Below are positions 1,639 to 10,600 of a DNA stretch of 64,000 bases, one piece after another. Each line of letters opens with the position of its first letter. Position 1 is the stretch's first letter. The stretch is taken from the NCBI RefSeq assembly GCF_016903815.1, contig NZ_CP069973.1; one strand, written 5' to 3'. The stretch is from Escherichia coli (GTDB taxonomy: Bacteria > Pseudomonadota > Gammaproteobacteria > Enterobacterales > Enterobacteriaceae). A program made the position numbers.

Positions 1639-4600
1639 AAAGCGTCGCATCAGGCACTATGTACAAGATGCCGGATCATGCATCCGGCAATTCACTTAAA
1701 AACGGTGACCCGCTTCCAGCGGAACCGCTTCTTCACCAGCCTTAAACACATAAGTGGTGTTCGGGCCACCCAGCGTAGCGTGACCTTTACTCACCGTGAT
1801 CCAGTTACCTTCCGGTAGACCAATAATTGTGAGTTCTGGCGCGACGACCAGCAGTTCGCGAATACGCTGCTCACGCGTTTCACCTTTATGGCCTTCCGGC
1901 AGCGCGTTGGTGAAGTGCGGGTTGATTTGCAACGGGAACAGATTCAGCGCATCGAAACCTTGTGGATCGACAATCGGCATATCGTTGGTGGTACGAATGG
2001 TTGGGCAAGCAAGGTTAGCGCCAGCGCTCCAGCCAATATACAGCGCGCCACGTTTAACCACGTCAGTAATTGGTGCCAGCAGCCCGCGCTCGCGGCACTG
2101 TTTCAGCAACTGGAAAGTATTACCGCCGCCGACAATCACGATCTCAGCATTTTCAATCGCGGCAACGGGATCGACAACGCTATGAATACCGGTGACAGAA
2201 ACACCCAGCGAAGCGAGAACCGCAGCCGTTTTCGCTGTGTAATCATCCCAGGTCTGCGTTACGCCAGCGAAAGGGATAAACACCGCTGAGCGGCGACCCT
2301 GCAACTGTTCAGCAATTAGCGGCAGTGCATGTTCCAGCCAGGCTTTACCCGGCAGCGTCGAGTTACTCAATAAAAGCAGTTCCATTACTTCTCCGGTTAG
2401 TAAGAAATCACGGGAGGCATGCTACCACTGCGAATTTAACCACTTACTGACATGGCTCACGATGTCACGTATTGCACCGGGCGCTGAGACTGATGACAAA
2501 CACAGCATTGCCTGATGCGCTACGCTTACCAGGCCTACCAGATAACTGCAATATATTGAATTTTCGAGATTATGTATGCCGAATAAGGCTTCATTCCGCA
2601 TCCGGCATAAACAATGTGTACTTTGCCACCAATTTGAGCGCCCCTTAAGGCGCTGATATTTTTTATCCTTCTCATGCAAATTGTGCTGCTTCAGCAATCA
2701 GCCGCACATCCGGTCGCGAAGTTGCCGCGGCGACCAGCCAGCGACATGCAGAGTTAAGTAGCGCGATTAATCATGGGAAATTGCCTCTGCATGAGTGAGC
2801 AGATATTGCTCCGCCTCACCGGACCAGATCCCCTGATGACGCGCCAGAATTGCCGCCAGTGCTTGATCCTGAATCTGCGTGAGTGACATAAGCGGCAGGT
2901 ATTTCCCGGTATACACCAGCTTTTTGCCGCCGCCGACGGCAGGCAATTCAAGCGTGGTTTCGCCCGCGGCATTCAGCCCAAGAATATGTGTTACCACTTT
3001 TGCGGCCTGCACTTTTTTCTCTTCAATCAATTTGACTGCTGCGCGCATGTCATCGGTATTGCCGCCTGACGTGCCCACGTAGTGGGTAAATGCATAATGC
3101 ACATCGTAGAAATTAATTGGCGCGCTGAAATGTTTATCCTGCGGTCCGGCGAAGAAATTCAGGCAACCATCTGTCGCCAGCAAGGAAGAGGCGAGAGTCA
3201 CCAGTCCTTCATTAGGCACAAAGACGAAAATATCATCGAAGCCGTGACCGCCACTCAGTGCCATTAACGTATCAAATGCTGCATCGGCAGCATTGAGATA
3301 ATGAATCAGTGTTTGCGGTTCTGATGGATAGTGCTTGCGCGCATAACTCAATTTGTCGTTGTCGGTATCGGTAATGACGAGCAGCGACGGGTTAACGGGT
3401 CCATGTAGCGCATAATCAATCGCCAACAGTCCCATTGGTCCGGTGCCGCCGAGGATCAGCGTGCGCCCTTGCGGGCGAATCCCCATCGTGTGGTTATAAC
3501 TACCTTCCTGAAGATGATAGTTGGCGTTGAACGCGCCAATCACGCAGGAAAGCGGTTCAACCAGCGAGCCTTCAAAATAGGTTTCGCCGTCGTATGCCAG
3601 CAGGCAATCTTGTTCCATGACCTCGTTGGGAATAACCACATGCGTGGCTTCGCCGCCTACCCACGGGAAGGAGTAGCCGGGGCAGTCCGGGCGGTCGGGG
3701 AGTTGCAGGTTGGCCTGAATCACATAACGCTGACCCGGCTGGAATTTGTGCTGCCACTTTTTACCCACGGCCAGAATATCGCCGCAAAACTCGTGGCCGA
3801 TGATGATGGGGTTGGTCGCCACATCGTCGGGTACTTTTTTATGGTTTTCACCCAGATTGGCCTCTTTCCAGGAAGAGAGGCACAGGCTGTCGGTGACCAC
3901 CGTCGCGAGGATTTCATCCTCCTGCATTTCAGGAAGATCAAAGGTTTCCAGGCGTAAATCACGTTTACCATAAAGACGCAGAGCTGTTGTTTTCATAAAC
4001 CACCTCATGTTGAGCGATGGCCCCGGCAGTCGTGCCGGGGCGAAGAATCAGGACAGGAAGCCCAGCGCATTGCCGATAATCCCTAAGCCAAACAGGGCGA
4101 AAATCAGCCATACCGGGTTAATTTTTTTGTTGAGCAGACGAACCATCAGTAGCGTCAGACCGAGCGCCAGCAAACCAGGGCAAAGTTGGTCGAGAATGTT
4201 CTGCACGGTCATGGTGACGGTGGAGCCATCGGCGGCATGCGTTTGTGAAACCACCAACGGTACGTTGATTGACGTCCATTTGGTCACCAGCACGCCCATC
4301 ACAAACAGTCCGAGAATCGACGCGCCTTCGGTGAGTTTTTGCAGCACATTCCCGCCCATATCGCTGACGATATTCACCCCTTTGCGAAAGCCGAGCTGTA
4401 GGCCATACCACTTCATCGCCAGACGCACCGCATTGAAAATAAAGAAAAACAGCAGCGGGCCGAGAATGTTGCCCGAAAGTGCCAGAGATGCGCCGAGCGC
4501 GGCGGTAATCGGGCGCAGCGTTCCCCAGACCAGTGGATCGCCAACTCCTGCCAATGGTCCCATCAGACCGACTTTGATGCCGTTAATGGTACCGTCATCA

Positions 4601-7600: not shown

Positions 7601-10600
7601 CACCAACAATTCCGCTGTATTTTTCTTCACTCATGGCAATGCCAATGGAATACCGCGCCTGCTTTAATTTATTCATTTCGATAGAGAGTGTTTTTTCGCT
7701 CATATTCGTTTCAACCATTGCGCCGTGAATATCATAAAAGCGCGAGCAAATATCGCCAGCAACCTGGCGGGCATTCAGGTCGTCACTCTCTTCACCACCA
7801 TAAAACGCATGCCAGTTAGCGCCGTCGCGAATGGCCGGTGAGCCAATTCCCACCAGGGCGACATCCAGATTATCCCAGTAGGCAGAGATGGTTTTAAAGT
7901 GCTGAGACTGCATGATCCCATTACGAATTAATGGGTTATCCAGCAGAGCCGGAAAATCCGCGAGATGCGATTCCCCTTTCAGCTTCGCTGCCGCGCTGTA
8001 GGTTAATGTGTTTACGTGATAGCGGCTTTCGAGTTTACCGGACGGTCCGCCAATAATTGGTACGCAGATTAACTGCCGCGATTGCCCCGCCTGCGGCAAG
8101 TTTTCAACCAGTGCGCTCACCGCGCGACCCCAGGAAAAACCGACAATATCGCCAGGCTCCAGCAAGCGATCCAGCAGTTGCGCGCCGTGTAACCCCATCA
8201 TCGCCAGTTGAGTCTCTTCATCCTCATCATTTCCCGACACCACCACAACGTCTTTCAGGCCAAACTTTTGCTTCAGTTGCTGCTCCAGCCAGAGATTTTC
8301 GTTGTAGTCATAGTTGATGGCGATGGTGACAATTCCCTGATCGCGGCCTCGTTTAAGCAAGCGGCTGATGGTGGTGCGGTAAATACCCAGTTCGCGCGCG
8401 ATTTGCGCCTGCGTCATATCCTGTTCGTAATAGAGTTGGGCAATCTTCACAATCAAACGGATATCGTCACTGTTTTCCATTGCCGCCTCCTGGTTCTGCA
8501 CATTTGTGCAAATACGCTTTCTCACCGCTTGATCTGATATAACCCCATCATGATGGCCTTTCAAAGCGATTTTTCACTCTTTGCATGGGGAGAAATAGCG
8601 CTTTCTCTTGCACATTTGTTTCTCTGCCTAGTAGTCATCAGCACAGTTGTGCAGCGATTCGTAATATGTTGATTATCCTTATTTTGCCAGGCAAATTTGC
8701 ATCGTACTTCCGGAGACACTTTTGTGATAAAAGGCGTGGCAGATCACATTTAATTTCGACGTTGCCGCATAACCCTGTTTTTCCCCGCTAAGAGGTACGG
8801 TATATTCCGCGTTTTACAGGAGAATTTATGCTGCCCGACTCATCAGTCCGTTTAAATAAATACATCAGCGAAAGCGGAATTTGCTCACGCCGCGAAGCGG
8901 ATCGCTATATCGAGCAAGGCAATGTGTTCCTTAATGGCAAGCGAGCCACCATTGGCGATCAGGTGAAACCCGGCGACGTTGTGAAAGTAAACGGTCAGTT
9001 GATTGAGCCTCGGGAAGCCGAAGATTTGGTACTTATCGCCCTGAACAAGCCCGTCGGTATTGTCAGCACCACCGAAGATGGCGAGCGCGATAACATTGTC
9101 GATTTCGTTAACCACAGCAAACGCGTGTTCCCGATTGGCCGCCTGGATAAAGACTCCCAGGGGCTGATTTTCCTCACCAATCACGGCGATCTGGTGAATA
9201 AGATCCTCCGTGCGGGTAACGATCATGAGAAAGAGTATCTGGTGACGGTCGATAAACCGATTACCGATGAATTTATTCGTGGTATGGGGGCGGGGGTGCC
9301 GATCCTCGGGACGGTGACGAAAAAGTGCAAAGTCAAAAAAGAAGCGCCGTTTGTCTTCCGCATTACCCTGGTGCAGGGGCTGAACCGTCAGATCCGTCGC
9401 ATGTGCGAGCACTTTGGTTACGAAGTGAAAAAGCTGGAACGTACGCGCATCATGAACGTTAGTTTAAGCGGCATTCCGCTGGGGGAATGGCGTGATTTAA
9501 CTGACGATGAGTTAATCGACCTCTTTAAGCTCATTGAAAATTCCTCTTCCGAGGCAAAATCTAAAGCGAAGGCCAAACCGAAAACTGTAGGCATTAAACG
9601 TCCAGTCGTTAAGATGGAAAAAACGGCGGAAAAAGGCGGTCGCCCGGCGTCCAACGGTAAGCGTTTTACCTCGCCGGGGCGTAAAAAGAAGGGGCGCTAA
9701 TCAGCGCCTGCCGCGCGTCGACGTATTTGCTGACCAGCTAAATGACGCTTCAGGATCCGGTTTATAAGCCTGCTTTTTCTTTAACTGGCGGGCTTTTTTC
9801 GCTTCAGCCTCACGCTCGACCATTAATTTATCGATGTACTCTTTCTTAATGCTGTTGGTTTCGGAGTTGGTCAGTACGCGACCATGCGCAATCCGCGCCC
9901 GATCCAGCAGTGTTTTAAGTTCACGCTGCTCGCGTTCAGTCATCTCTTTTTGGGTAATACGGGGGAGTGCCATGCTGGTGCCCTCAGTGAGCCAGAGAGT
10001 TCAGTGTACGGGAATTCGTTTGCGAGCAGAACTGATAATATTCATTTTGCCTTCTCTTAACTATTTATCTCTTTCGATAATTAATTAGAGATGCAGATAA
10101 AAAAATTAAAGGCAATTATTCTCCGATAAAGACGTTGGTTAACAGAGTACAGGCTCGTTTATTGATGAGCATAGTGACAAGAAAATCAATACGGCCCGAA
10201 ATATAGCTTCCAGGCCATACAGTATTTACTCAAACAAATTACTATGCAGTTTTTGCACCACCTGCTCGGCATCTTCGCCGGGCACCAGGAAGCACAGGTT
10301 ATGGCTGGATGCGCCGTAACAAATCATGCGAATGTTGAACGGTTCCAGTACGCCGAATACCTCTTTGCCAACGCCGCAGGCTTTTGACAGGTCATTGCCA
10401 ATCAACGCGACCAGCGCCAGACCTTCCTCCACTTCTACCCGGCATAGTGCAGACAGCTCCATCAGCAGAGATTGCGTCAGCAAGGTATCGCCAGTGGAGG
10501 TTGAACCGGTGGTATCAAGGGTTAATGCCACGCTCACTTCTGACGTGGTGATTAAGTCTACCGAAATATTATGCCGCGCGAGGATGCCGAAAACTTCCGC

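Follow-up and report, generated by a model that had tools for sequence, protein, structure and literature searches.

Is the L-sorbose operon of Escherichia coli, which lies between pepE and rluF and is missing from K-12, a piece of acquired DNA or an old chromosomal locus that some strains have lost? The question is raised by a stretch of 64,000 nucleotides of E. coli DNA (NCBI RefSeq assembly GCF_016903815.1, contig NZ_CP069973.1), called the window in what follows. A first-pass annotation had read a complete sorCDFBAME operon of about 5.8 kb in it as an accessory island, bordered on the pepE side by repetitive extragenic palindromic (REP) elements and lying next to an insertion sequence (IS), as would fit a variable hotspot. 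The analysis presented here points to a different history. With a probability of about 0.9, this part of the window is sorCDFBAME, the chromosomal operon for the use of L-sorbose in E. coli, and an old fixed locus of the Enterobacteriaceae that was lost in K-12-type strains.

The sor operon of E. coli is already described and is a common accessory operon. In the genome of enteroaggregative E. coli (EAEC) 042, sorEMABFDC adjoins rluF and is absent from MG1655; 042 uses sorbose and MG1655 does not (PMC2808357). Swiatek et al. (2025), working with tens of thousands of genomes, reported that in most phylogroups over 86% of the genomes carry sor, against 9.6% in A and 12.1% in B1 (PMC12817954). In the same study the sor genes were the most strongly sorbose-induced genes, and knock-out and knock-in phenotypes were shown. 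A sorE deletion in sequence type (ST) 131 abolished reduction of L-sorbose-1-phosphate, a sorAM mutant imported sorbose through other phosphotransferase systems (PTSs), and a sor knock-in ST10 strain was made (PMC12817954).

Gene Content and Predicted Function

Gene calls were taken from the RefSeq annotation of E. coli strain 222, isolated from urine in Boston, whose chromosome (NZ_CP020516.1) is 100% identical to the window at 1500-10500, and families were assigned with NCBIfam/TIGRFAM models and their cutoffs together with Pfam scans. The annotated order is yjbB, IS1397 transposase, pepE, sorE, PTS subunits IID, IIC, IIB and IIA, a short-chain dehydrogenase/reductase (SDR) oxidoreductase, a sugar-binding transcriptional regulator, rluF, yjbD and lysC. 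The gene content, the order sorCDFBAME and the position between pepE and rluF given by the first-pass annotation thus hold. All seven sor genes lie on the minus strand, translate without internal stops and match the expected families, and their lengths are those found in two other E. coli strains, except for a frameshifted sorC in one of them. Transcription runs C-D-F-B-A-M-E in a single direction with intergenic gaps of -1 to 69 nt, and the coding block spans 5714 bp (2767-8480), close to the size first proposed.

The individual proteins resemble characterised relatives closely. SorC matches the Klebsiella pneumoniae SorC structure 2W48 over its full length (E 6e-184), and the RLIHGQV phosphorylation-site region of SorB is identical to that of the K. 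pneumoniae IIB-Sor structure 1NRZ. The PDB relatives of SorE are sorbitol dehydrogenases, its orthologues in the syntenic operons of other Enterobacteriaceae are 84-98% identical to it, and sorE of the window is predicted to encode an L-sorbose-1-phosphate reductase of the Zn-dependent medium-chain dehydrogenase/reductase (MDR) type. The K. pneumoniae sor operon (sorCDFBAME) has the same seven genes in the same order and orientation and the same pathway logic.

By analogy with what is published for Klebsiella and E. coli, a permease formed by SorF (IIA), SorB (IIB), SorA (IIC) and SorM (IID) would take up L-sorbose and phosphorylate it to L-sorbose-1-phosphate. SorE would reduce this to D-glucitol-6-phosphate, which SorD would oxidise to D-fructose-6-phosphate for entry into glycolysis. 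The published pathway runs through the same stations, from PTS uptake to sorbose-1-phosphate, then glucitol-6-phosphate, then fructose-6-phosphate (PMC13410766). SorC, cited as an activator with sorbose and a repressor without it (PMC12817954, PMC13410766), would act in both roles here as well, probably via TGCACA-type palindromes upstream of sorC.

Could the PTS and the dehydrogenases serve a different ketose or hexitol? Mannose, fructose and sorbose are not told apart by the family models that the four PTS subunits match, and for SorE there is no equivalog model, its MDR matches being weak. E. coli ManXYZ has the same mannose-family enzyme II (EII) architecture with a IID subunit, and the window's IIB, IIC and IID score 211-415 bits on mannose models. 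ManX, however, is a IIAB fusion, whereas IIA and IIB are separate in sor; the sor proteins score below the mannose IIAB equivalog cutoff; and the sor PTS, unlike ManXYZ, has SorE and SorD as linked partners and SorC as its regulator. The identity of the window proteins to K. pneumoniae SorC and IIB-Sor is about 85-88%, as read by eye, sorbose is used by E. coli strains that have the orthologous operon but not by MG1655 (PMC2808357), and sorbose induction of sor, the ST131 sorE-deletion phenotype and the making of a sor knock-in ST10 strain (PMC12817954) all point to L-sorbose. Another substrate is therefore unlikely in the extreme.

Comparison with K-12 and Distribution in E. coli

A BLAST comparison of the K-12 locus with the window finds the flanks collinear. 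K-12 does not carry the sor genes at this position; pepE and rluF are neighbours there, as the first-pass annotation had stated, and the spacer between them is 211 bp long. The difference is a replacement and not a clean insertion, the sor segment of the window facing a 95-bp filler in K-12 (Table 1).

The state of this site was counted in 5426 complete E. coli genomes. The sor operon is present in 2868 of them (53%), always on the chromosome and at a single locus, a frequency that the published phylogroup distribution (PMC12817954) fits. The K-12-type junction is found at full length in a further 2557 (~47%). Together the two classes account for 5425 of the 5426 genomes, and no other cargo was observed between pepE and rluF. 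In effect, then, the site has two states; it is no hotspot of varied cargo, and the variable hotspot that had been proposed is not supported. The published E. coli sor operons (EAEC 042, CFT073, ST131 and ST648; PMC2808357, PMC13410766, PMC12817954) occupy the same locus by rluF and are likewise absent from MG1655.

An Old Locus or an Acquired Island

A cross-species survey places this dimorphism in a wider setting. Loci were collected by a SorE scan with one genome per species and annotated by tblastn with E. coli proteins. The arrangement yjbD-rluF, sorCDFBAME, pepE-yjbB recurs in the same orientation in Escherichia whittamii, E. albertii and a cryptic Escherichia, and also in Pseudocitrobacter, several Citrobacter, the Klebsiella oxytoca group, K. 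indica, Raoultella and Enterobacter. In Cedecea colo, an Enterobacter sp. and an Enterobacteriaceae isolate the rluF side is kept, and pepE and sdhL, a gene that follows sorE in other loci, are absent. The identities of the Sor proteins (~84-100%) parallel those of the flanking yjbD, rluF, pepE and yjbB; between Citrobacter Cu233 and E. coli, identity is 87-94% in the flanks and 84-96% in the sor proteins. The GC content of the segment, 0.47-0.56 with a mean of about 0.51, resembles the 0.48-0.54 of its flanks.

The usual companions of acquired DNA were also sought. There are no tRNA genes within window positions 1-14000, no direct or inverted repeats were found at the segment boundaries, and no mobility genes lie inside the segment, all seven of its open reading frames being metabolic or regulatory. 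An Rfam scan found no RNA in the sor region, its sole match being the lysine riboswitch of lysC, which lies outside.

Because the same synteny occurs in at least six other genera and three other Escherichia species, the GC content is native, and tRNA genes, an integrase and flanking repeats are missing, the sor locus is most likely old at the rluF-pepE position and the K-12-type haplotype most likely a loss. The competing account holds that a horizontally acquired accessory island was inserted into the pepE-rluF spacer of the sor-positive lineages at a recombination hotspot. It can draw on the absence of the operon from 47% of complete genomes, on a K-12 filler that lacks homology to the segment, on the REP elements at one border and on the nearby IS. 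An insertion confined to sor-positive E. coli lineages sits poorly with an identical position and orientation in other Escherichia species and in other genera, with Sor identities that run in parallel to those of four flanking genes, with a GC content like that of the flanks in a segment lacking any tRNA, mobility gene or flanking direct repeat, and with a site that has two states only. Moreover, the REP pair is secondary, because the stretch that holds it is absent from strains with an intact sdhL. The island, as acquired DNA, is improbable, and the claim is not borne out.

Several points nonetheless weigh against an old locus lost in K-12-type strains. The loss is argued from outgroup synteny, with no visible scar. 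When such a deletion scar was sought by comparing the 95-bp K-12 filler with all fetched sor loci, most of the filler had no detectable homology to them. The matches are its conserved pepE-side and rluF-side edges and 35 nt at 86% identity to the rluF-proximal spacer of one Citrobacter, leaving about 65 nt unexplained, and for this reason the deletion endpoints cannot be reconstructed. K. pneumoniae sensu stricto, E. fergusonii and Salmonella are missing from the 80 loci kept in the survey, which makes the sampling of the ancestral state incomplete. As to function, the NCBIfam PTS models resolve mannose, fructose and sorbose to subfamily level only, and the predicted L-sorbose specificity comes from orthology.

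The distinction has practical weight. Sorbose fermentation is a classical biotyping trait of E. coli, and recent papers tie sor carriage to high-risk extraintestinal pathogenic lineages. A clean presence/absence dimorphism that is best read as loss matters wherever sor serves as an 'acquired' fitness marker.

More distant loci from the survey were also seen. Enterococcus crotali and Enterococcus ureilyticus (loci L036 and L038) have the order C-D-F-B-A-M-E at 28-73% protein identity, which hints at whole-operon exchange between phyla. Gilliamella (loci L040-L050) has the PTS genes with sorE, and sorC downstream, without an adjacent sorD.

An Eighth Gene and Its Remnant

The operon of E. coli appears to have had one more member. 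In strain MINF_9A (locus L005, 3871-4683), sorE is followed by a gene of 813 nt that is annotated as 'shikimate 5-dehydrogenase' and whose ATG overlaps the stop of sorE. The product of this intact gene, sdhL, is a close orthologue of the shikimate dehydrogenase-like protein SDH-L of Haemophilus influenzae, HI0607 (PDB 1NPY), which it matches with E 2e-112 over 268 of 270 residues, and it scores 467 bits against NF009202 (cutoff 306). The gene stands in the same place in nearly all syntenic loci of other genera. The window has no full-length SDH-L reading frame (~270 residues, NF009202/1NPY), only a dead 112-nt remnant with a premature stop. The 5' part of the remnant, 58 nt, retains the ATG that overlaps the sorE stop and has codon 7 changed from CAA to TAA; the 3' part, about 55 nt, includes the stop codon; and about 701 nt have been deleted internally.

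Intact sdhL is present in 177 of the 5426 complete genomes. The window type, with the remnant and its REP structure at 94-100% identity, is present in 2680, including O157:H7 and UTI89. Because so many genomes share this structure, the sdhL deletion is old and the majority state. E. coli accordingly has three states: a rare eight-gene operon; a seven-gene operon with the sdhL remnant and the REP pair, in about half of genomes including the window; and complete loss with the 95-bp filler in about 47%. We consider it rather probable that the enterobacterial operon was ancestrally the eight-gene sorCDFBAME-sdhL and that it decayed stepwise in E. coli, sdhL being deleted once, with a REP pair in its place, in most sor-positive lineages and the whole locus being deleted in K-12-type strains.

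Previous descriptions differ on this gene. In addition to its other host, the K. pneumoniae sor operon differs from the window and most sampled Enterobacteriaceae, which have sdhL or a remnant of it after sorE. The classical K. pneumoniae description from the Lengeler laboratory reportedly gives seven genes. In E. coli, sdhL was found to be expressed only in ST648, with differential expression in L-sorbose, and was described as an ST-specific insertion (PMC12817954). Its transcription in ST648 accompanied the induction of sor and was observed only when L-sorbose was present. The comparisons made here indicate, to the contrary, that sdhL is ancestral and was deleted elsewhere, leaving a remnant.

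That sdhL is a conserved eighth member of the operon, and not a lineage-specific insertion, hints that this orphan subfamily of enzymes has a role connected with sorbose. If true, the eight-gene arrangement would place the HI0607-type SDH-L proteins in the physiology of sorbose or ketose metabolism, where their role can be tested. The shikimate-dehydrogenase family includes some members that reduce 5-ketofructose. A specific role of SdhL as a 5-ketofructose reductase was considered and set aside as speculation, since its match to PDB 7COK (E 2e-16) is no better than its matches to ordinary AroE proteins.

A GC-rich hairpin (AGCGCC/GGCGCT) lies just downstream of the sdhL remnant. It is doubtful as an operon terminator because its T-run is on the plus strand only.

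The SorD G192R Allele

The window strain differs from the published E. coli sor operons in carrying an altered SorD. Relative to other E. coli alleles, a GGG to AGG change at base 6890 turns Gly192 of the invariant SDR 'PG' motif, at the cofactor site, into Arg. This glycine is invariant in 37 of 37 SorD orthologues, including those from Firmicutes and Lentisphaerae with as little as 56% identity, and in solved SDR structures its counterpart is the Gly of the 'APG' motif. Over 861 bp, this base is the sole difference between the window and its nearest relative, strain 7/2. The exact 61-mer containing the change is found in 8 of the 5426 complete genomes, and the exact protein on 244 contigs of a large collection. 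Judged by these comparisons, G192R is a real, recent and clone-specific change. The variant scores above the cutoff of the family model NF004817 (Table 1), yet the loss of the invariant glycine is likely to damage cofactor or substrate positioning and may weaken or abolish the SorD step, the last of the pathway, in the window's strain.

How far this would affect the strain can be put only tentatively, at rather less than even odds for the stronger outcome. According to that account, the gene set is complete but crippled: G192R inactivates SorD and makes the strain sorbose-negative, dependent on SrlD (GutD), or sorbose-sensitive through a build-up of sugar phosphate. The invariance of Gly192, its alignment with the structural 'APG' glycine, and the recent origin of a single base change confined to so few complete genomes argue in its favour. 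The persistence of the allele within its clone, on 244 contigs, shows that it is not strongly counter-selected. E. coli also has a second glucitol-6-phosphate dehydrogenase, SrlD (GutD), encoded in the sorbitol operon, which could mask a SorD defect, so srlD could compensate.

The description of the operon as complete therefore holds for its seven intact genes, and calls for qualification in two respects: the eighth gene, sdhL, is only a remnant, and sorD carries a substitution at an invariant glycine.

Other sor alleles of Escherichia show damage of different kinds. In E. coli O111:H8 strain 1074-2 (L003, 6395-7343), sorC is annotated as frameshifted and the other six sor genes are intact. 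SorC being also an activator, this frameshift could presumably explain the sorbose-negative phenotype exploited in selective media for O111. Partial tblastn matches to SorE in E. albertii NBRC 107761 (L044, 1517-2257) and Escherichia sp. MOD1-EC7003 (L046, 10486-11226), and to SorD in E. coli SCPM-O-B-8794 (L010, 4068-4598), suggest that sor genes have become pseudogenes independently in other lineages of Escherichia. Gene-presence calls can thus overstate phenotype, as with the probably damaging sorD G192R here and the frameshifted sorC in the O111:H8 strain.

The Control Region Upstream of sorC

An alignment of the 350 nt upstream of sorC from 20 species shows conserved blocks that stand out in otherwise diverged sequence (Table 1). 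A strict sigma-70 consensus scan found no promoter upstream of sorC. From the cross-species footprint, the TATATC/TTGAAA pair is a plausible candidate for the sorC promoter. The TGCACA repeats would be candidate SorC operators, one downstream of the promoter, where it could serve repression, and the others upstream, where they could serve activation. A canonical site for the cyclic AMP receptor protein (CRP) at 8717-8748 was considered and rejected, the TGTGA and TCACA halves lying 16 nt apart and not 6.

REP Elements and IS1397

The REP elements reported on the pepE side are present, and the start given for the operon region, 2510, is the first base of the Z2-type unit. The first unit agrees with its consensus closely; the second, degenerate and inverted relative to the first, was missed by an ungapped consensus search and was read by eye. 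The two form a pair resembling a bacterial interspersed mosaic element (BIME) in a 171-bp stretch (2476-2646) between the sdhL remnant and pepE. This stretch is absent from MINF_9A, in which sdhL is intact.

The nearby IS is IS1397, and its presence stands. It interrupts a different REP on the far side of pepE, however, and leaves the sor operon undisrupted. The insertion point is the loop of a REP between yjbB and pepE that is uninterrupted in K-12 (GTAGGCCTGATAAGACGCGTCAAGCGTCGCATCAGGC). Insertion in a REP loop fits the reported preference of IS1397 for palindromic units. Among the matches listed, only strain 222 covers IS1397 at yjbB-pepE, the others starting at query position 139-141.

Elsewhere in the window, another BIME-like REP pair consists of a Z2-type unit at 30350-30378 (+) and a Y-type unit at 30415-30448 (-), and single Y-type units lie at 21602-21635 and 43277-43310.

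Coordinates and Neighbouring Features

Table 1. Positions of the sor operon and associated features in the window
Feature	Position	Strand	Basis or remark
IS1397, 1432 bp	206-1637		TAA target duplication at 203-205 and 1638-1640
pepE	1696-2385	-	RefSeq
Segment differing from K-12, 6326 bp against a 95-bp filler in K-12	2467-8792		BLAST of the K-12 locus against the window; left junction fuzzy, ~2467-2482
REP, Z2-type palindromic unit	2510-2538	+	1 mismatch to consensus, 0 expected by chance
Second REP, a degenerate Y-type palindromic unit in inverted orientation	2574-2606	-	Read by eye; differs from consensus by several mismatches and a 1-nt gap
GC-rich hairpin (AGCGCC/GGCGCT)	2637-2654		Sequence scan
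sdhL remnant (pseudogene), 112 of 813 nt	2663-2774	-	Alignment with the intact gene, L005 3871-4683
sorE, predicted L-sorbose-1-phosphate reductase, Zn-type medium-chain dehydrogenase, GHE motif, 409 aa	2767-3996	-	RefSeq name; Pfam ADH_N and ADH_zinc_N
sorM, PTS EIID (mannose family), 274 aa	4048-4872	-	TIGR00828, 472 bits (cutoff 293); PF03613
sorA, PTS EIIC (mannose family), 265 aa	4883-5680	-	TIGR00822, 424 bits (cutoff 340); PF03609
sorB, PTS EIIB, 164 aa	5746-6240	-	TIGR00854, PF03830; 1NRZ, E 6e-91
sorF, PTS EIIA, 135 aa	6240-6647	-	TIGR00824, 145 bits (cutoff 98); PF03610
sorD, sorbitol (D-glucitol)-6-phosphate dehydrogenase (SDR), 268 aa	6657-7463	-	NF004817, 495 bits (cutoff 304)
sorC, SorC-family regulator (helix-turn-helix and sugar-binding domain), 315 aa	7533-8480	-	PF04198, 270 bits; helix-turn-helix matches
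Divergent sorC-rluF control region	8481-8827	-	Alignment of 20 orthologous upstream regions
Perfect palindrome TGCACA-TT-TGTGCA, between candidate promoter and ribosome-binding site	8497-8510		Conserved in the 20-species alignment
Candidate -10, TATATC	8536-8541		Within conserved block GGGTTATATCAGATCA
Candidate -35, TTGAAA, 17-nt spacer to -10	8559-8564		Within conserved block GGGTTATATCAGATCA
Related TGCACA motifs	8608-8618 and 8641-8652		20-species alignment
TGTGATC and CACAAAAGTG blocks	8717-8748		20-species alignment
rluF	8828-9700	+	RefSeq

Beyond the operon, further differences lie on the rluF-yjbD-lysC side. The stop codons of rluF and yjbD abut at window 9700/9701, with zero spacer. 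In K-12 (L002, 3340-3461) the convergent rluF and yjbD are separated by 122 additional bp, which contain a GC-rich 'cccctcgcccc...ggggtgagggg' palindrome that we take to resemble a boxC-type repeat. The yjbD-lysC spacer is a separate variable spot, empty in the window (9974-10225). In some E. coli it holds a module encoding slipin family, nucleotidyltransferase-domain and zeta-toxin family proteins, regardless of the presence of sor; among the fetched E. coli loci, this three-gene module lies at L003 9367-12253, L004 3132-6018 and L005 12411-14335. The lysine riboswitch upstream of lysC is found at window 11667-11863 on the minus strand (Rfam RF00168, 99.5 bits).

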